A stretch of 64,000 nt of DNA from Candidatus Nomurabacteria bacterium. GTDB lineage: Bacteria > Patescibacteriota > Minisyncoccia > Phycocordibacterales > UBA9973. Below, one piece after another: positions 1,287-24,801 of this stretch. Location: contig JAIOPO010000001.1 in NCBI GenBank assembly GCA_021413905.1, positions 137,159 to 201,158 of the forward strand. The letters run 5' to 3'. Each line of letters starts with the position of its first letter. Within the stretch, counting starts at the first letter, position 1. Under the pieces are notes generated by a model. It did not search any database, was not told where the DNA came from, and saw nothing but the letters and a program-made list of their open reading frames with translations. A program made the translations under genes and the position numbers.

Positions 1287-2984
1287 ATGTCCCACGAAAT
1301 ACAAAAAGTCACATGTCAGAATCACAACATCAGTAAACACTGCCAAGGGGAATTTACGATAGAACCCGATGATTTTGTGTTTTACAAAAAGATAAAAGTG
1401 CCTCCACCGACATTTTGTCCGGAGTGTAGAACCCAAAGAGCTATGGTTTGGAGAAATGAAACAACTTTGTATTCAGGTAATAAATGCAATCTTTGCAATA
1501 AAAGTGTTTTAACTATGTATAATCCAAAATCTGATTTTATTATTTATTGTAATTCATGTTATAGGGGAGACAAATGGGAACCAAGAGATTATGCAATGGA
1601 TTATGATTTTTCAAAATCATTCTTTGAACAATTTGAAGATTTGATGCGCAAAGTTCCTAAGAATGCATTATATAATACGAGTGGAGCTGGATTGATAGTT
1701 GATAGTCCTTATAACAATTGTGTTGGAGGGCTTAAGAATTGCTACATGTGTTTTAATTCAGCTAATTTAGAAGATTGCATGTATTCAAGAGGGGTTACAC
1801 GTTCGAAAGAAGTTTTGGATTCTTATTTTTGTAAAAAAATAGAAAATTGTTATGAGGCAATAAATACATATAATAGTGTGAATTCTTTTTGGATACAAAA
1901 TTCAAATGATATCTTAGATTCAATTTTTTTATATGATTGTGCAAATGTTTCAAATTGTTTAGGTTGTGTTAATTTGAGAAATAAAAGTTTTTGCATATTA
2001 AATGAACAATATTCCAAAGAAGAATATTTTAGTTTTTTAAATAAAATAAAAGGTTCATATTCAAATCTAGAAAATTTTAGAAATCAATTTATTTCATTGA
2101 CAAAAAGTTTACCAAAAAGAGCTAATCAAAATATTAAAACAATGGATTGCGTAGGGGATTATTTAACAGAATGTAAAAATGTTAAACATGGATTTGAAGT
2201 TATGAACTCTGAAGATTGCAAAAGGATATATTTTGGTAGGGATATAAAAGACAGTAGAGGTACTATTGGGTATGGTATAAAATCAGAGCTACTTTTAGAA
2301 TGTGTTTCCACTGGTTATACTTCTAGGGCTATCGGATGCTGGGCTTGTGAATTATCTCAAGATTTAGAATATTGTGTATCGTGTTTTCCTAGTAATAAGA
2401 ATTTAATAGGATGCGATTCTATGAGAAATTCTCAATATTGTATTTTAAATAAACAATATTCAAAAGAAGAATACGAAAAAATAAAAATACATATAAATGA
2501 AGAACTTACAGTATTAGGAGTCTATGGATTAATGTTACCTTCTGAAATTTCTCCTTTTTCTTATAATGAAACATTGGCACAAGATAACTATAATTTATCA
2601 GAAGAAGAAGTTTTAAAAGAAGGTTTTGTGTGGGAAAAAGACATACAAATGACCTCGGGAAAAGAAACCGCGGACATAAATTCTTTAGTAGATAATATCA
2701 ATGAAACTTCAGAAGATATATGTAAAGAAATTTTAGCCTGTATTGATTGTAATAGAAACTATAAAATAACTGAGCAAGAATTTTATTTCTACAAAAACAA
2801 AATTATCCCTGTTCCAAGAAAATGTTTTTATTGTAGACATCAATCAAGAATAGTGAAAAGAGGAAGTTTGAGATTTGATAAAGAAATATGTAATAAATGT
2901 AATATTGATATATATACAAATTTAAATCCCAAAGACGGAGATATAGTTTACTGTGAAAAATGTTATCAGCAAAAAGTTTATTAA
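1287..2984 (+). CDS. Cysteine-rich repeat protein with N- and C-terminal tetra-Cys zinc-ribbon-like modules, function unknown
   Basis: 565 aa, about 50 Cys. N-terminal F.FYKKIKVPPPTFCPECRTQR...C..C...YC.SCY resembles the C-terminal FYFYKNKIIPVPRKCFYCRHQSR...CNKC...YCEKCY. Internal repeats include RNKSFCILNEQYSKEEY and RNSQYCILNKQYSKEEY. Confidence 0.7.
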   Translation: MSHEIQKVTCQNHNISKHCQGEFTIEPDDFVFYKKIKVPPPTFCPECRTQRAMVWRNETTLYSGNKCNLCNKSVLTMYNPKSDFIIYCNSCYRGDKWEPRDYAMDYDFSKSFFEQFEDLMRKVPKNALYNTSGAGLIVDSPYNNCVGGLKNCYMCFNSANLEDCMYSRGVTRSKEVLDSYFCKKIENCYEAINTYNSVNSFWIQNSNDILDSIFLYDCANVSNCLGCVNLRNKSFCILNEQYSKEEYFSFLNKIKGSYSNLENFRNQFISLTKSLPKRANQNIKTMDCVGDYLTECKNVKHGFEVMNSEDCKRIYFGRDIKDSRGTIGYGIKSELLLECVSTGYTSRAIGCWACELSQDLEYCVSCFPSNKNLIGCDSMRNSQYCILNKQYSKEEYEKIKIHINEELTVLGVYGLMLPSEISPFSYNETLAQDNYNLSEEEVLKEGFVWEKDIQMTSGKETADINSLVDNINETSEDICKEILACIDCNRNYKITEQEFYFYKNKIIPVPRKCFYCRHQSRIVKRGSLRFDKEICNKCNIDIYTNLNPKDGDIVYCEKCYQQKVY

Positions 2985-2986
2985 AT

Positions 2987-3520
2987 TTATTTCTTAAAAG
3001 TTTCAAATAAAAACTTTTTTGTTTCTTCGTCTATGTATTCTGTTTTTATTATCATCATCTCTGTGGTGAGTCCTAAATCTTTTTTTATATTTTCAAAAAG
3101 GTATTCATACGGGAAAGGGGAGATCCAAGCAGAATTTTTCAAGCAGACGAAGCCCGCTTTTTTTAATAAATAGCGCAAGCTCTCTCGCTCGTTTTTTCTA
3201 TTCTCCGGCAAGTCGAGTAAAATAATCCTCCAAAATCCGTCCCAAGAAGTGTTTGCCAAAGTCGTCTCATTTTCCAGCCTTAAACTATGCATTTTCTTTT
3301 TTCCTTCTTTCGTCAGTCTCGCATAATCATTCTGCCCGGATGAGATGTGTTCTACTAGCCCTGCGTCTCGTAGGCCTTTTAAAGACCTTGTAATAGCATA
3401 CTTGTCTAGGGCGGAGGAGTTTCCTTCGCTATCTGCTTTATTGTGCAATTCTGGCAATGAAACGGCATTTTTACCCCCTAAAATCCTTATTATTTTCTTG
3501 GAAAAGTCTTTGTTTTTCAT
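2987..3520 (-). CDS. Putative PaaX-family-like transcriptional regulator (winged-helix N-terminus plus PaaX_C-like domain)
   Basis: 177 aa. N-terminal wHTH-like segment (LKGLRDAGLVEH). C-terminal WDGFWRIILLDLPENRKNERESLRYLLKKAGFVCLKNSAWISPFP matches the W.G.W...D.PE..R..LR..L...GF pattern of the PaaX C-terminal domain. Confidence 0.55.
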   Translation of the reverse strand: MKNKDFSKKIIRILGGKNAVSLPELHNKADSEGNSSALDKYAITRSLKGLRDAGLVEHISSGQNDYARLTKEGKKKMHSLRLENETTLANTSWDGFWRIILLDLPENRKNERESLRYLLKKAGFVCLKNSAWISPFPYEYLFENIKKDLGLTTEMMIIKTEYIDEETKKFLFETFKK

Positions 3521-3645
3521 AAATTTGTCCTGTCCCGTTAGAGATAGGGAATCTTTAGATTACCGTAAAAGCTCTAATGGGATTGACATACTTATATCCT
3601 ATCATATATACTGTTTTTAACAAGTATTCTGCGGTCGCGAAATAC

Positions 3646-3674
3646 TTGCAAAATAATTAGGGCTTCTATATAAT
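3646..3674 (+). promoter_or_regulatory. Sigma70-like promoter TTGCAA-N17-TATAAT driving LMW-PTP-like gene and probably dnaK
   Basis: ttgcaa at 3646-3651, 17-nt spacer, tataat at 3669-3674. ATG at 3683 implies a 1-2 nt leader. A second TTGACA-N16/17-TATATA is at 3583-3611. Confidence 0.4.
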
Positions 3675-3682
3675 AGGTTTAT

Positions 3683-4096
3683 ATGAGAAAAATTATTTTC
3701 ATTTGTAAAAGAAATAGATTTAGAAGCCAGATTGCTAAGGCTTTAACTAATAAATTACTTAGCGATAATTGGGTAGCTGAATCTTATGGATTTTTAGTTA
3801 GACCAGAAGATGAAAAAAATCCTTTTTCTAATAATCCAAAAGTAGGTGAAACAATTAAGGGTTTGAAGGAAATAGATATTGATATCTCTGATGGTTTGTC
3901 GAAACAACTTAGTTCAGAAAATTTAGAAGATGTAAATAGAATTGTTGTTTTGACTGAAGAAGAAGATATTCCAGATTGGTTTAAAAAATATGATTATGAA
4001 CATTGGAATGAAATAAAAAATTTCCCTGGAAGTCCAACTTTAGAAAAAACAAGGAGAACAATCGAGTTAGTTAAAAAAAGATTAGAAACATTATAA
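3683..4096 (+). CDS. Low-molecular-weight phosphotyrosine-phosphatase/ArsC-fold protein with divergent P-loop
   Basis: 137 aa. N-terminal IIFICKRNRFRSQIAKAL fits the LMW-PTP C-x5-R-S P-loop but with CKRNRFRS instead of C(L/T)GN(I/T)CRS. DIPDW loop downstream. Only 21 nt separate it from dnaK. Confidence 0.65.
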   Translation: MRKIIFICKRNRFRSQIAKALTNKLLSDNWVAESYGFLVRPEDEKNPFSNNPKVGETIKGLKEIDIDISDGLSKQLSSENLEDVNRIVVLTEEEDIPDWFKKYDYEHWNEIKNFPGSPTLEKTRRTIELVKKRLETL

Positions 4097-4117
4097 AATT
4101 AATTAAAATAAAAAAAT

Positions 4118-6025
4118 ATGTCAAAAATAATAGGAATAGACTTGGGTACAACAAATAGCGCGGTTGCTATTATCGAAGGAGGACAGCCGAAGATTATAGA
4201 AAATATTGAAGGGGCGAGGACGACGCCGAGTATTGTTTCCGTGGCAAAAAATGGAGACAGATTAGTGGGGCTACTTGCAAAAAGACAAGCGGTGACAAAT
4301 CCGGAAAATACCGTGTACGGTATCAAGCGTTTTATGGGTCACAATTTTGAAGATCCGGAAGTGCAGAAAGATTTAAAAAATGCTTCTTTTAAAATCCAAA
4401 AATCCGCAAACGGCGGAGTGGAAGTAAAAATCGGCGATAAATGGATGCGCCCGGAAGAAATTTCCGCGATGATTTTAACAAAAATCAAAACAGACGTGGA
4501 AGCAAAAATCGGAGAGAAAATAACCGAAGCAGTGATCACAGTGCCTGCATATTTCAACGATGCGCAAAGAAAAGCGACAAAGGATGCAGGAATGATTGCC
4601 GGTCTTGATGTGAAAAGAATTATCAACGAGCCGACAGCGGCAGCTCTTGCATATGGTTTTAATTCAAAGAAAAATGAAAAGATAGTGGTGTATGATTTTG
4701 GAGGCGGAACATTTGATATTTCTGTTTTGGAAGTGGGTGATGATGTTATTGAAGTGAAGTCTACAGATGGAGACAGTCACCTCGGCGGTCGCGACCTTGA
4801 CCACAAGATTATCGCTTGGATTGCGGATGAATTTAAAAAGACTTCAGGTGTGGATGTACGCACTGACGCATTGGCATTGCAACGTCTCGATGAAGCTGCG
4901 GAAAAAGCAAAGATAGAGCTTTCTACAGCTATTGAAACAGAAATAAATATTCCTTTTATCACTTCCACAGCTTCAGGTCCGCAACACTTACTCTTGAAAA
5001 TGTCTCGCGCTCAGCTCGAAGCTATTGCGGATGAATATGTGTCTCGTTCTATTGAGATAACAAAACGCGCGATGACTGCGTCCGGTTTTAAAATGGAAGA
5101 AATAAATGAAATTGTGATGGTCGGAGGTCAGACAAGAATGCCGAAAATTGTGGAAGCGGTGAAAAATCTTTTTGGAAAAACTCCAAACCTTTCTATTAAT
5201 CCTGACGAAGTGGTGGCTCTCGGAGCTGCGGTGCAAGCGGGAGTGTTGCAAGGGGATGTGAGGGATGTTTTGCTTCTTGATGTTATTCCATTATCTTTGG
5301 GTATTGAAACATTGGGCGGAGTGGCTACGAAACTCGTGGAAAGAAATACGACAATTCCATCAAGTAAATCACAAGTATTTTCTACAGCAGCGGATAATCA
5401 GACAAGCGTGGAAATACATATCGTGCAAGGTGAAAGACCGATGGCATCTGATAACAAATCATTAGGAAGATTTATTCTGGATGGTGTACCACCGGCACCT
5501 CGTGGTATTCCGCAAGTGGAAGTTTCTTTTGATGTGGATGCAAATGGAATACTCAATGTGACTGCGAAAGACAAAGCTTCCGGTAAAACTCAATCTATTA
5601 AAATAGAAGCGAGTTCCGGTTTGAAAGATGAAGACATAAAGAAAATGCAAGCTGATGCCGAAGTGCACGCCGAAGAAGATAAAAAGAAAAAAGAAATGGC
5701 GGATGTGCGCAATACTGCGGAGATGACATTGTACACAGCAGAGAAATCTTTAAAAGATAATGAAGCAAAAATTCCAGAAGAGGTGAAAACAGAAGTAAAT
5801 GAAAAAATCACAAATGTGCGCTCTACAAAAGACAGCACAGATATGGAAGCTTTGAAAAAAGCGGTGGAAGAGCTTTCATCTTCAATGTCTAAGATTGGCG
5901 AGGCTATGGCTAATTCTTCGGCAAGCGCAGGACAAGAACAAGCAGAATCTTCAAATGTTGAAGAGCAACCAACAGAAGTAAAAAATGAAGAAGTAAAGCC
6001 TGAAGGCGAAGAGCCAAAAGCTTAA
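4118..6025 (+). CDS. dnaK: Molecular chaperone DnaK (Hsp70)
   Basis: 635 aa. [41 protein letters not shown] and other Hsp70 signatures, with acidic C-terminal tail. Confidence 0.97.
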
Positions 6026-6037
6026 TACTACTAAAAA

Positions 6038-6066
6038 GCCCCGCGCCTTTGGCGCGGGGCTTTTTG
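6038..6066 (+). terminator. Strong GC-rich intrinsic terminator after dnaK
   Basis: gccccgcgcc-ttt-ggcgcggggc perfect 10-bp GC stem followed by ttttt. Separates dnaK from the downstream ATPase gene. Confidence 0.85.
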
Positions 6067-6071
6067 TTTGT

Positions 6072-7880
6072 TTGTATTTTTGGTATAATAAAAAAATGGA
6101 TTCTCACGAATTGCCAAAAAATAAAGATTTGACATATATCGGACTGACGACTTTTCGTGATAAGAAAAATCTTTTTGGTATAAAACGTAAAGACAGAAGA
6201 CAACATGTATATGTATTGGGTAAATCCGGTACCGGTAAATCCGTGCTTCTTTCCAATATGATTGTGCAAAATATCCAAAATGGAGACGGTGTTTGTGTTG
6301 TGGATCCACACGGAGAACTCGTCGAAGGAATATTACAATCCATACCAGAGAATCGCTTGAAAGATGTAGTATATTTTAATCCGGCGGATACGGATTATCA
6401 TATTGGTTTCAATGTATTGGAATTAATAGATCCGAAATACAAACATCTCGTGGCTTCCGGACTCATGGGTATTTTTACTAAAATTTGGGCTAATGCATGG
6501 AGTGCCAGAATGGAATATATTTTAAATAATGCTATTTTGGCATTGCTTGATACTCCGGGTTCCACATTACTCGGTATTCCAAGACTTTTGGTTGATAAAG
6601 ATTATCGTCAAAAGATAATAAATAATTTGAAAGACCCTGTTATCAAAGCTTTTTGGATTCATGAATATGAAGCTTGGCAAGAGAAATTTCGAAATGAAGC
6701 TATTGCACCTATTCAAAACAAAGTCGGACAATTCCTCTCTACATCTATCATTCGTAACGTTGTCGGCCAAGCAAAAAGCACGATAAATATTTTCGACATT
6801 ATGAATGAAAGTAAAATATTTTTGGTGAATGTTTCCAAAGGGCGTATTGGTGAAGATAATTCCGCTTTGCTCGGAGGTATGATAATTACAAAAATACAAC
6901 TCGCCGCGATGGAACGCGTGCGTATACCCGAAGATGACCGTAAAGATTTTTATTTATATGTGGACGAATTCCAAAATTTTGTGACGGATTCTTTCGCAAG
7001 TATTCTTTCTGAAGCTCGTAAATATCGCCTCAATCTGACTGTCGCTCATCAATACACAGCACAACTCGTCACAGACAATGGTTCTGCTGTGCGTGATGCT
7101 GTTTTTGGTAACGTCGGAACAATGATTATTTTTCGTGTCGGTGCAGACGACGCTGGCTTTTTAGAAAAAGAATTTGAACCTGAATTCACACCTCAAGATA
7201 TTGTGAATTTACCAAACTATAAAATATATTTGCGTTTAATGATAGACGGAGTGACTTCCAGACCATTTTCCGCAAAAACATTGCCACCAATAATAAAAAA
7301 TCCAGATCCAAAAATAGAGCAATCTGTAATAGATTCTTCTCGTGCATTGTATTGTTTACCAAAAGATGTGGTAGAAAGAGAAATCAATAATTGGAGTGGT
7401 ATGTCTTTGGGAGACAATGAAAATGGAAATATGGAAAAATTCCCGGCTGTTTGTTCTATTTGTAAAAAAGAAACTTTTGTCCCATTCCAACCACAACCGG
7501 GCAGACCTGTGTATTGTAAAGATTGCATAGCAAAAATGAAATCCGGTGAGTTAAAGCCATTGAGTGGTTCTATGAATCAAATAAAACAAGATGAAAGTAA
7601 ATTTTATCAACCCTTAGTTGATTTAGGTATAGAATTTAGTGATAAAGGTAATGCAAATACTAATAATATCAAACCAAAAAATAATAGTGTTATTTCTTCT
7701 GTAAAAAATATATTCAACAAAAATCAGAATTCAAATACATTGAAACCTCCGATGAATAAGAATATAAATAATTTCAATAAATTTAAAAATCCTGCTCCTG
7801 TCATAAAAAAGCCAGAAATAAAAAAAGAAACCTGTCATAAAAAAGCCAGAAATAAAAAAAGAAAATGTTGCTTTGCGTGA
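6072..7880 (+). CDS. Soluble VirD4/TraD/TrwB-like (T4CP family, FtsK-HerA superfamily) P-loop ATPase, paralog 1; reading frame broken near 3' end
   Basis: Walker A VLGKSGTGKS, then VVDPHGEL (compare TrwB GATGTGKS...DPNGD). Walker B FYLYVDEFQN. LTVAHQYTAQL fits the T4CP QxxxQL motif. No N-terminal TM segment. C-terminal CxxC...CxxC zinc ribbon and K/N/P-rich tail. Confidence 0.8.
   Translation: MYFWYNKKMDSHELPKNKDLTYIGLTTFRDKKNLFGIKRKDRRQHVYVLGKSGTGKSVLLSNMIVQNIQNGDGVCVVDPHGELVEGILQSIPENRLKDVVYFNPADTDYHIGFNVLELIDPKYKHLVASGLMGIFTKIWANAWSARMEYILNNAILALLDTPGSTLLGIPRLLVDKDYRQKIINNLKDPVIKAFWIHEYEAWQEKFRNEAIAPIQNKVGQFLSTSIIRNVVGQAKSTINIFDIMNESKIFLVNVSKGRIGEDNSALLGGMIITKIQLAAMERVRIPEDDRKDFYLYVDEFQNFVTDSFASILSEARKYRLNLTVAHQYTAQLVTDNGSAVRDAVFGNVGTMIIFRVGADDAGFLEKEFEPEFTPQDIVNLPNYKIYLRLMIDGVTSRPFSAKTLPPIIKNPDPKIEQSVIDSSRALYCLPKDVVEREINNWSGMSLGDNENGNMEKFPAVCSICKKETFVPFQPQPGRPVYCKDCIAKMKSGELKPLSGSMNQIKQDESKFYQPLVDLGIEFSDKGNANTNNIKPKNNSVISSVKNIFNKNQNSNTLKPPMNKNINNFNKFKNPAPVIKKPEIKKETCHKKARNKKRKCCFA
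7797..7864 (+). repeat. Perfect 34-bp tandem duplication (2 copies) causing +1 frameshift
   Basis: cctgtcataaaaaagccagaaataaaaaaagaaa at 7797-7830 is repeated exactly at 7831-7864. 34 is not divisible by 3. Removing one copy fuses ORF 6072.. in frame with ORF 7873..8220. Confidence 0.9.
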
Positions 7881-9462: not shown

Positions 9463-10950
9463 TTGAGAAAAGTGTCAATTTGTAGTAAAATTAAAACAAT
9501 GTCATTAAAACCAAATCGAGTTCAAATAATCAAATATGCGCCACCACCACCGGAATTACCCGTATATGGCAAAATAAAACCTGAAGAAGTTTCTTTTATT
9601 GGGCGGACAAATTATGTCGCAGCTCTCGAAGAAAAGAAATTTATTTTTGGAATAAAACGTATCGACAGACGAAGACATTTATATATTGTCGGTAAATCAG
9701 GAGTAGGTAAATCAAAATTACAAGAATTAATGATTCGCCAAGACATAGCTTATGGCTATGGTGTCTGTGTTATAGATCCGCACGGAGAATTGATAGATGA
9801 TATTTTGGAATTTGTTCCGGAGAATCGCATTGAAGATGTTTGTATTATCGACCCGAGCGATGTGGATTTTCCTGTTTCTTTTAATCCTTTGGCAAATATT
9901 GATCCAGGGTTTAAACATCAGCTCACTCAAGGTTTGATTGAAGTTTTGAAAAAGCAATTCGGTTCAAACTGGACACCGCGTCTAGAACACGTATTTCGTT
10001 TTACTGTGCTTGCTTTGCTCGACTATCCATATGCCACAATGCGCGGAATGATTTCAATGTTGACCGACAGAAATTATAGACAAAAAGTAGTCGAATATAT
10101 CGAAGATGATATGGTTAAAAGATTCTGGGCTATAGAATTCGCTGATTGGTCTGAAAAATTCGACACAGATGCCATCATTCCGCTCGTGAATAAACTCGGA
10201 CAATTCCTCTCAGACCCTATGCTTCGCAATATTTTCGGTCAAATAGAAAACAAAGTTGATTTGGAAAAATTAATGAATGAACAAAAAATAATTTTCATTA
10301 ATTTGTCAAAAGGGCGTATCGGAGAAGAAAATGCTTCTTTCTTTGGAGCGATGTTTATCACAAAAATAAAACAAGCCGGTATGGCTCGTGCAAAACTTGC
10401 CAAAGAAGATAGACATGATTTTTATTTATATGTGGATGAGTTTCAGAATTTGGTGACAGACACATTTGAAAACATTTTATCTGAAGCTCGTAAATATGGT
10501 TTGAATCTGACTGTGGCGCACCAATACGTGAGTCAACTTTTGCCGAAAGTGCAACAAGCTGTGATGGGTAATGTAGGCTCTATTATCACATTTCGTGTCG
10601 GTGGTGATGATGCAGTAAAATTAAAACCTGAATATGAACCTATTTTCGGAGTGAAAGATATGATAAATCTGGGAGTGGGAGAATTTTATATCAAAATGAC
10701 GATTGATGGCGAGAGTTATGATCCTTTTTCCGCAGAGACTTTGAAAGTTTTACCACCGACACATCCTTCATATAGAGAGCGCATTGTGGAAGCTTCTCGC
10801 AGGAAATACGCAATGCCAGCCGAAGACGTGAAGCGTGTTTATGAACAAGAAGAATCAATGATTGTCCGTAGCGCAAAAGAAAAGTCAGCAATCGTTAGCG
10901 ATAAGATTGAAGATAAAAAAACTGAAGAAGATATCAGTCCGTTAATATAA
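9463..10950 (+). CDS. Soluble VirD4/TraD/TrwB-like (T4CP family) P-loop ATPase, paralog 2
   Basis: 495 aa. IVGKSGVGKS, VIDPHGEL, FYLYVDEFQN, LTVAHQYVSQL. About 50% identical to paralog 1 over the ATPase core with the same motif order. No TM segment. Confidence 0.8.
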   Translation: MRKVSICSKIKTMSLKPNRVQIIKYAPPPPELPVYGKIKPEEVSFIGRTNYVAALEEKKFIFGIKRIDRRRHLYIVGKSGVGKSKLQELMIRQDIAYGYGVCVIDPHGELIDDILEFVPENRIEDVCIIDPSDVDFPVSFNPLANIDPGFKHQLTQGLIEVLKKQFGSNWTPRLEHVFRFTVLALLDYPYATMRGMISMLTDRNYRQKVVEYIEDDMVKRFWAIEFADWSEKFDTDAIIPLVNKLGQFLSDPMLRNIFGQIENKVDLEKLMNEQKIIFINLSKGRIGEENASFFGAMFITKIKQAGMARAKLAKEDRHDFYLYVDEFQNLVTDTFENILSEARKYGLNLTVAHQYVSQLLPKVQQAVMGNVGSIITFRVGGDDAVKLKPEYEPIFGVKDMINLGVGEFYIKMTIDGESYDPFSAETLKVLPPTHPSYRERIVEASRRKYAMPAEDVKRVYEQEESMIVRSAKEKSAIVSDKIEDKKTEEDISPLI

Positions 10951-24607: not shown

Positions 24608-24801
24608 GGTTTTTAGGGTTTAGAGGAATATTCCATTTTTGTGAAATACTTTTCAAAACCCTAAATACAACCATTTTTTAAAGAACAAAAACTACTATTA
24701 AAGTATAGCACTTTAGTGTAAAAAAGTCAAGTAAATTACAAATAAAGCTTATAAACAAAGAATATATTAGTGACTTTCTTTTCAACTCTTTTTTTGTTAA
24801 A

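Follow-up and report, generated by a model that had tools for sequence, protein, structure and literature searches.

A low-molecular-weight phosphatase-fold protein with an intact Cys/Arg cradle and no Asp acid, encoded between a candidate operator and dnaK in Candidatus Nomurabacteria

We examined a 64,000-nt stretch of a Candidatus Nomurabacteria contig (JAIOPO010000001.1, positions 137,159 to 201,158; hereafter the window), in which a 137-aa protein with the fold shared by ArsC and the protein tyrosine phosphatases of low molecular weight (LMW-PTP), here called LMWP, is encoded just upstream of dnaK. LMWP, a coherent active-site variant of this fold, retains the Cys/Arg cradle, has lost the Asp acid and has gained Tyr35 and Phe13. 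Judging from sequence and gene order, we tentatively favor, at somewhat under an even chance, a specialized, low-turnover Cys-dependent phosphoryl or oxyanion transferase that would be co-expressed with DnaK. Most likely LMWP is neither a YwlE-type arginine phosphatase nor a classical arsenate reductase. The gene itself is of modest importance, and the module around it, with a PaaX-like regulator and a palindromic candidate operator, is the more interesting lead.

LMWP is a real, folded gene product kept by purifying selection. Its NCBI entry is a hypothetical protein of a Candidatus Nomurabacteria metagenome-assembled genome. Pfam LMWPc (PF01451) matches residues 4-94 only, scoring 30.3 bits where the gathering threshold is 23.2 (E 5.5e-7), and an AlphaFold2 model made with a 70-sequence alignment reaches a predicted local distance difference test (pLDDT) score of 96.2. 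The predicted structure has a strand at residues 2-8 and then a helix at residues 14-25, which places the P-loop between beta1 and alpha1. Foldseek returned 87 PDB matches at E<=1e-3, the best 50 of the 87 all being ArsC or LMW-PTP entries; the template modeling (TM) score is 0.75-0.77 against pI258 ArsC, and Cg_ArsC2 and YwlE (TM 0.75) were also matched. Compared pairwise with four orthologues, the gene has a dN/dS of 0.09-0.19, with dS at about 0.8-1.2. Together with the intact C-x5-R-S motif, these results bear out the fold assigned to the 137-aa protein in the first-pass annotation, a model's reading of the sequence letters. That annotation also raised the possibility of a sequencing error in the P-loop; the segment FICKRNRFRSQ is identical in independent assemblies (P0001-P0008, L017 and L018, where P and L numbers are our handles for relatives), so the P-loop is not such an error. 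A scan of genome contigs with the LMWP protein alone gave one distant Acidimicrobiia locus and was uninformative.

The P-loop reads C8-K9-R10-N11-R12-F13-R14-S15, that is, C-x5-R-S with Asn at position 4. Aligned to reference sequences verified against the PDB, C8 and R14 fall on C10 and R16 of pI258 ArsC and on C7 and R13 of YwlE. For the family we aligned 230 relatives, gathered in an exhaustive run of HMMER and in a profile search. Position C+1 is Arg or Lys in 88% of them; C+2 is Gly in 51%, Ala in 27% and Arg in 5%; at C+4, Val or Ile make up 70% and Arg 5%; and C+5 is Gly in 73% and Phe in 9%. Going by this alignment, R10, R12 and F13 are what marks the LMWP clade and its sisters. The loop had been called aberrant, and CKRNRFRS is indeed its sequence, but it is less aberrant than claimed, given the family frequencies at C+1 and C+2 and the loop CKRNSCRS of SynArsC, the Synechocystis arsenate reductase. 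The Lys-Arg after the nucleophile therefore has a precedent in a solved, active enzyme.

The larger departures, which the first-pass annotation did not mention, are the loss of the general-acid Asp and the single Cys. In the D-loop, one residue longer after Trp108, the DP of the general acid/base has become N113-F114 (then P115), as against Asp105 in ArsC and Asp118 in YwlE; across the family, this position is Asp in 81% and Asn in 16%. Cys8 is the sole Cys of the protein, with T91 and I96 aligned to Cys82 and Cys89 of ArsC. The cradle is nearly invariant, Cys8 being present in 229/230 relatives and Asn11, Arg14 and Ser15 each in 230/230, and both C8 and R14 are invariant within the LMWP clade. 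The loss of Cys or Arg by which a STYX-like pseudophosphatase is recognized is not seen in LMWP.

The acid position varies in concert with position 35: Ala35 occurs with Asp in 165/180, and Tyr, Cys or Phe35 with Asn in 26/32, while Phe13 is enriched in the Tyr35 group. On these counts, G13F, A35Y and D113N co-vary as a subfamily signature, which suggests a coordinated functional shift rather than decay. In a few relatives from the same subfamily the Cys nucleophile is replaced by Asp, in the form FIDRGNxxRS (P0016, L027 1135-1671 and L033 5977-6420), and these also have Asn at the acid position. Their existence favors phosphoryl transfer or oxyanion binding over thiol redox chemistry or arsenate reduction.

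Among PDB entries, the family profile matches Cg_ArsC2 (7e-20), SynArsC (3e-19), A. fulgidus ArsC (1e-18) and pI258 ArsC (about 1e-16), as against 1.5e-9 for YwlE and about 1e-9 for eukaryotic and bacterial LMW-PTPs. With LMWP as a single query, ArsC entries reach 2e-6 and YwlE is absent from the PDB matches at E<=10. These profile distances put LMWP on the ArsC side of the superfamily, and by sequence it appears to belong to a subfamily found throughout the candidate phyla radiation (CPR). The lack of both resolving cysteines and ars neighbors nevertheless argues that it is not a bona fide ArsC. The only NCBIfam matches are to ArsC models, at 37-40 bits against cut-offs of 158-215; no arsR, arsB or acr3 was found among the neighboring genes or the scanned open reading frames (ORFs) of the window, the neighborhood consisting of the PaaX-like regulator, dnaK, grpE and VirD4-like ATPases. 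A classical ArsC was ruled out by the absent cysteines, the scores below cut-off and the lack of ars context.

Four characterized enzymes bracket LMWP. (i) The glutaredoxin-coupled SynArsC of Synechocystis sp. PCC 6803 (PDB 2L17/2L19) is the best single-sequence PDB match (E 2e-6, full length). It shares the fold and most of the P-loop with LMWP, and differs in having its own resolving pair Cys80/Cys82 and an EDPDG acid loop, where LMWP has T91 in the column of the first of that pair, a single Cys and N113-F114; identity is about 27-30%, and TIGR02689 gives LMWP 37.0 bits, its cut-off being 157.6. (ii) Cg_ArsC2 of Corynebacterium glutamicum, dependent on mycothiol and mycoredoxin (PDB 3RH0), is the best family-profile match. 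It uses single-cysteine catalysis and, like LMWP, holds something other than Asp at the acid position, in its case Glu, but its P-loop is CVGNGGKS, it depends on mycothiol, it lies in an ars context and it is 27% identical to LMWP. (iii) The thioredoxin-coupled ArsC of S. aureus pI258 and B. subtilis (PDB 1LJL, 1JL3) is the best structural match, its P-loop Cys, Asn, Arg and Ser aligning with those of LMWP; its Cys10-Cys82-Cys89 cascade and Asp105 are not found in LMWP, which scores 38.9 bits with TIGR02691 against a cut-off of 174.3. (iv) YwlE of B. subtilis (PDB 4KK3, 1ZGG) has the LMW-PTP fold, the CX5RS motif and, in Bacillus, an association with the stress response; here its Thr11 is replaced by Arg12 and its Asp118 by Asn113.

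The locus around LMWP is laid out as follows, in window coordinates.

2987..3520, minus strand: PaaX_M-type winged-helix regulator, 177 aa, divergent from LMWP-dnaK (Pfam PaaX_M 5.8e-20, with weak winged helix-turn-helix matches)
3583..3612, plus strand: P1, promoter-like site TTGACA-18-TATACT, 11/12 by consensus scan, its -10 ending 8 nt before the operator
3621..3648, no strand assigned: candidate palindromic operator CAAGTATT-N12-AATACTTG, a conserved intergenic palindrome
3646..3674, plus strand: P2, promoter-like site TTGCAA-17-TATAAT, 10/12 by consensus scan
3683..4096, plus strand: LMWP gene, 137 aa, from an ATG start to a TAA stop (counted in); the protein begins MRKIIFICKRNRFRSQ
4097..4117, plus strand: spacer of 21 nt, A/T letters alone, without Shine-Dalgarno sequence or terminator
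4118..6025, plus strand: dnaK, 635 aa, from the translation (orthologues 78-95% identical; Pfam HSP70 matches)
6032..6066, plus strand: predicted intrinsic terminator closing the LMWP-dnaK unit, a 16-bp stem with 10 GC pairs and then a T-run

The gene had been drawn through 4117; it is indeed there, and the ORF stops at 4096, the remainder being spacer that also forms the dnaK leader. The description of a same-strand gene 21 nt before dnaK with no terminator between them agrees with the coordinates and with a consensus scan, which found no terminator-like site on the plus strand of 3683-4118 and a strong one after dnaK at 6032-6066. The spacer is 13-54 nt long in relatives. GC content is 27.3% in the LMWP gene and 41.6% in dnaK, with 32.4% in the window. 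LMWP lies between dnaK and a candidate operator with divergent promoters, and so is probably co-transcribed and co-regulated with dnaK under a PaaX-like repressor.

The right arm of the candidate operator overlaps the -35 of P2, and its left arm, on the minus strand, is TTGTTA/TTGTCA, which serves as -35 in the promoter-like site of the regulator itself. Within the fetched DNA, matches to the palindrome with one mismatch or none are confined to the intergenic region between regulator and dnaK (window, L001, L004 and L041-L044), while each of the other matches in the window has at least two mismatches. One of these was considered as a second operator copy, upstream of an 855-aa ORF at 24626, and was put down to chance: it has two mismatches, and what the ORF encodes is no chaperone but an M1 aminopeptidase. 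As RNA, the window copy of the palindrome folds at -10.5 kcal/mol (z -3.7). The inner spacer keeps its sequence in L041-L044 without being self-complementary there, while the half-sites on the outside, 8 bp each, are conserved too and coincide in part with -35 boxes on both strands. On these grounds we favor an operator in the DNA rather than an RNA hairpin, and a 5' hairpin or RNA thermometer was rejected because the inner stem is not palindromic in these loci.

P1 recurs at 11/12 by scan in L042 and L043, is aligned in L004, L017 and L018, and has an equivalent in L001 (TTGACA..TATAAT, judged by eye). P2 is the promoter named in the first-pass annotation. The site is present and is conserved in 6/9 related loci, including L001 and L041-L044, but the match alone is not above chance, with 9 sites found in this AT-rich DNA against 7.7 +/- 3.2 expected. 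L004, L017 and L018 either lack P2 or have it in disabled form; in these loci the start codon stands close behind the palindrome, and P1 probably drives expression. Between the regulator start codon and P1, the window has a specific insert of about 62 nt (3521-3582), with an 11-bp inverted repeat (3533-3543 / 3572-3582). A separate peculiarity of L042 and L043 is that the regulator -10 ends 7 nt before its ATG, suggesting a leaderless mRNA there.

The regulator is widespread, with 1899 homologues at E<=1e-10, of which the best 120 are 72-80% identical. In four independent contigs (L041-L044) it lies between grpE and dnaK; the regulator-operator region occupies 588-690 in L041, 4875-5000 in L042, 4866-5000 in L043 and 1-174 in L044, corresponding to 2987-3682 of the window. 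Its AlphaFold2 model is poor as a whole (pLDDT 65), with an N-terminal helix-helix-helix-beta-beta segment at pLDDT 81-87. As an analogy for the module, not for LMWP, HrcA-CIRCE and HspR-HAIR likewise have an inverted repeat as operator at the dnaK promoter, with the repressor gene linked to it; here the protein is a predicted PaaX_M-type winged helix-turn-helix and the operator is the N12-spaced palindrome, and neither CIRCE nor a CtsR-like operator was found in the window. We found no description in the searchable literature of a PaaX-like repressor/operator module at dnaK in Paceibacteria, and nothing in the literature on an LMW-PTP/dnaK or PaaX/dnaK link in CPR bacteria.

Linkage of LMWP to dnaK is a property of one clade. 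The order grpE, Zn-finger-rich ORF, PaaX_M regulator (minus strand), LMWP, dnaK is common to all relatives of 72-76% identity whose flanking DNA is long enough to show it (L001/L015, L003, L017 and L018). The linkage had been proposed for checking in relatives; it holds in the clade of at least 72% identity and is confined to it. Sisters at 43-44% identity, with the P-loop CRRNRFRS, lie directly after gyrB (L019 5989-6420, L020 41-478 and L035 243-650), overlapping it or leaving a 2-nt gap, and more distant family members have unrelated neighbors, in some cases thioredoxin, peroxiredoxin, Msr or DJ-1 genes. A firm clustering with arsenate reductases that lack chaperone linkage, named in the first-pass annotation as grounds for abandoning its reading, is thus found by half: the protein is on the ArsC side and its distant relatives are unlinked to dnaK, but it is not a bona fide ArsC.

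The unit also exists without LMWP. The slot between operator and dnaK is empty in L043 and L044, where the regulator is directly divergent from dnaK; it holds unrelated ORFs of 70 aa and 186 aa in L042 (4100-4882, minus strand) and a 185-aa ORF in L041 (38-595, minus strand). From this comparison of loci, LMWP appears to be a clade-specific passenger in a variable, promoter-proximal slot of a conserved regulator-operator-dnaK unit. The proposal of a phosphatase dedicated to chaperone or stress regulation keeps its footing in the proximity to dnaK within the clade, but the dedication is weakened by the loci in which the module lacks LMWP or carries unrelated ORFs. We also considered a functional pairing of LMWP with PaaX_M proteins, one of which is encoded downstream of LMWP in L020 and L035 (one organism); it is very distant from the window regulator, and this weak lead was not used.

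How might LMWP work? The intact phosphate cradle points to covalent Cys8 chemistry on a tetrahedral oxyanion, and the added basic residues to an anionic substrate and a very acidic thiol. K9, R10 and R12 would make the Cys8 thiolate more acidic and more attractive to anions, and Cys8 would attack the phosphoryl group, or another tetrahedral oxyanion, of a strongly anionic substrate to form a covalent adduct. Without the Asp acid/base, turnover might be slow or the substrate trapped. Alternatively, the substrate may have a good leaving group that needs no protonation, such as an acyl phosphate, or another residue may substitute for the Asp, Tyr35 and the clade-invariant Glu110 being candidates.

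Several points weigh against a transferase co-expressed with DnaK. Catalysis by LMW-PTPs is normally crippled when the acid/base residue is Asn, and LMWP, with Asn113, could thus be a binder rather than an enzyme. Co-transcription with dnaK is probable on the grounds of spacing, strand and the lack of a canonical terminator, and there are weak promoter-like matches at 4071-4131 (consensus scan) and short spacer inserts in L001 (1428-1481), L003 (483-536) and L017 (5782-5823). The PaaX-like regulator is a candidate repressor of the shared operator, and its binding of the palindrome, like any response to heat, is putative. Finally, the LMWP gene and dnaK are unlike in GC content, and what fills the slot varies, so that the linkage may mean little functionally. 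The spacer inserts of L001, L003 and L017 could be processing or attenuation elements. Those of L001 and L003 hold a hairpin (e.g. CCCGA-N8-TCGGG) without a T-run.

Of the alternatives, a catalytically impaired phospho- or oxyanion binder, which would work alongside the DnaK system or the PaaX-like regulator as an adaptor or substrate trap, fares best, although we consider it unlikely. In its favor, the lost Asp is required in both chemical steps of LMW-PTPs (PMC7772506), some relatives lack the Cys, the strongly basic pocket rim of K9, R10 and R12 would suit tight anion binding, and the gene is co-located with dnaK. Classical pseudophosphatases, however, lose Cys or Arg. Cys8, Asn11, Arg14 and Ser15 are here invariant in the clade and kept in 229-230/230 of the family, a pattern typical of active enzymes.

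Rather less likely still is a single-Cys reductase of arsenate or another oxyanion that, like Cg_ArsC2, would depend for resolution on a redoxin or low-molecular-weight thiol from outside. Its appeal lies in the ranking of the matches, with Cg_ArsC2, Synechocystis ArsC, A. fulgidus ArsC and pI258 ArsC as the best by profile or sequence, in the single Cys of Cg_ArsC2 and the Glu at its acid position, and in the redox-type genes (thioredoxin, peroxiredoxin, Msr, DJ-1) next to some distant relatives. The scores fall far short of the NCBIfam ArsC cut-offs, however, resolving cysteines are lacking, no arsR, arsB or acr3 gene appears among neighbors or scanned window ORFs, and the relatives with Asp for the Cys nucleophile cannot reduce arsenate. 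Moreover, mycothiol is not expected in CPR bacteria.

A thiol-based redox or stress sensor, working through a low-pKa Cys8 in the cationic P-loop and co-expressed with DnaK, seems highly improbable. The single conserved Cys in a very basic loop and the redox-type neighbors of some distant homologues would suit it, but the full phosphate cradle of N11, R14 and S15 is kept, superfluous for a simple redox switch; Cys-to-Asp relatives exist, and the operon has no partner redoxin.

The phosphoarginine specificity of YwlE is set by Thr11, at P-loop position 5, as stated in a passage of PMC7772506 that cites Fuhrmann 2013. No ATP:guanido-phosphotransferase (McsB) domain was found by Pfam in the 35 proteins scanned, a search confined to the window and leaving aside about 15 of its ORFs. 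The least probable reading, a YwlE-like protein-arginine phosphatase opposing an McsB-type kinase in a heat-shock circuit, as the first-pass annotation had suggested by analogy, has in its favor the LMW-PTP fold, the intact CX5R(S), YwlE structures among the Foldseek matches and a gene within the dnaK unit, but is rejected since the profile favors ArsC types by about ten orders of magnitude, position 5 is Arg12 rather than the Thr of that passage (an Arg would presumably repel the guanidinium), the general acid has given way to Asn113, the scanned proteins include no McsB and the window no CtsR-like or CIRCE operator, and the dnaK module is present without the LMWP gene in related lineages.

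We return to the transferase and its setting. A broader version, speculative and in our view improbable, is that the F13/Y35/N113 class comprises distinct LMW-PTP-fold enzymes that work without the canonical Asp, on acyl phosphates or a polyanionic phospho-substrate, and that in this Nomurabacteria clade it was recruited as a stress-induced DnaK accessory under a new PaaX-type repressor and operator replacing HrcA-CIRCE in Paceibacteria. The module itself, a PaaX-like regulator and a palindromic operator across divergent promoters before dnaK, is found in many Paceibacteria, with no CIRCE in the window. Should stress repression prove to be the regulator's role, reduced CPR genomes would have here a new type of heat-shock control, and the variable slot behind the operator would mark accessory proteins expressed with DnaK.

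Two further features of the neighborhood are noted. (i) A Cys-rich ORF of 565 aa (1287-2984, plus strand), with weak matches to treble-clef zinc fingers, lies between grpE and the regulator. Counterparts at 36-50% identity are present in L017 and L018, as a tandem duplicate in the latter, and in L043 and L044 the corresponding position is taken by ORFs of about that size. (ii) Two VirD4/TraD-like coupling-protein ATPases are encoded between dnaK and dnaJ (6072-7880 and 9463-10950, plus strand). The first bears a C-terminal CxxC-x17-CxxC finger, and its gene also stands after dnaK in L001, L042 and L043, which makes it an unusual companion for a chaperone operon, and a conserved one.

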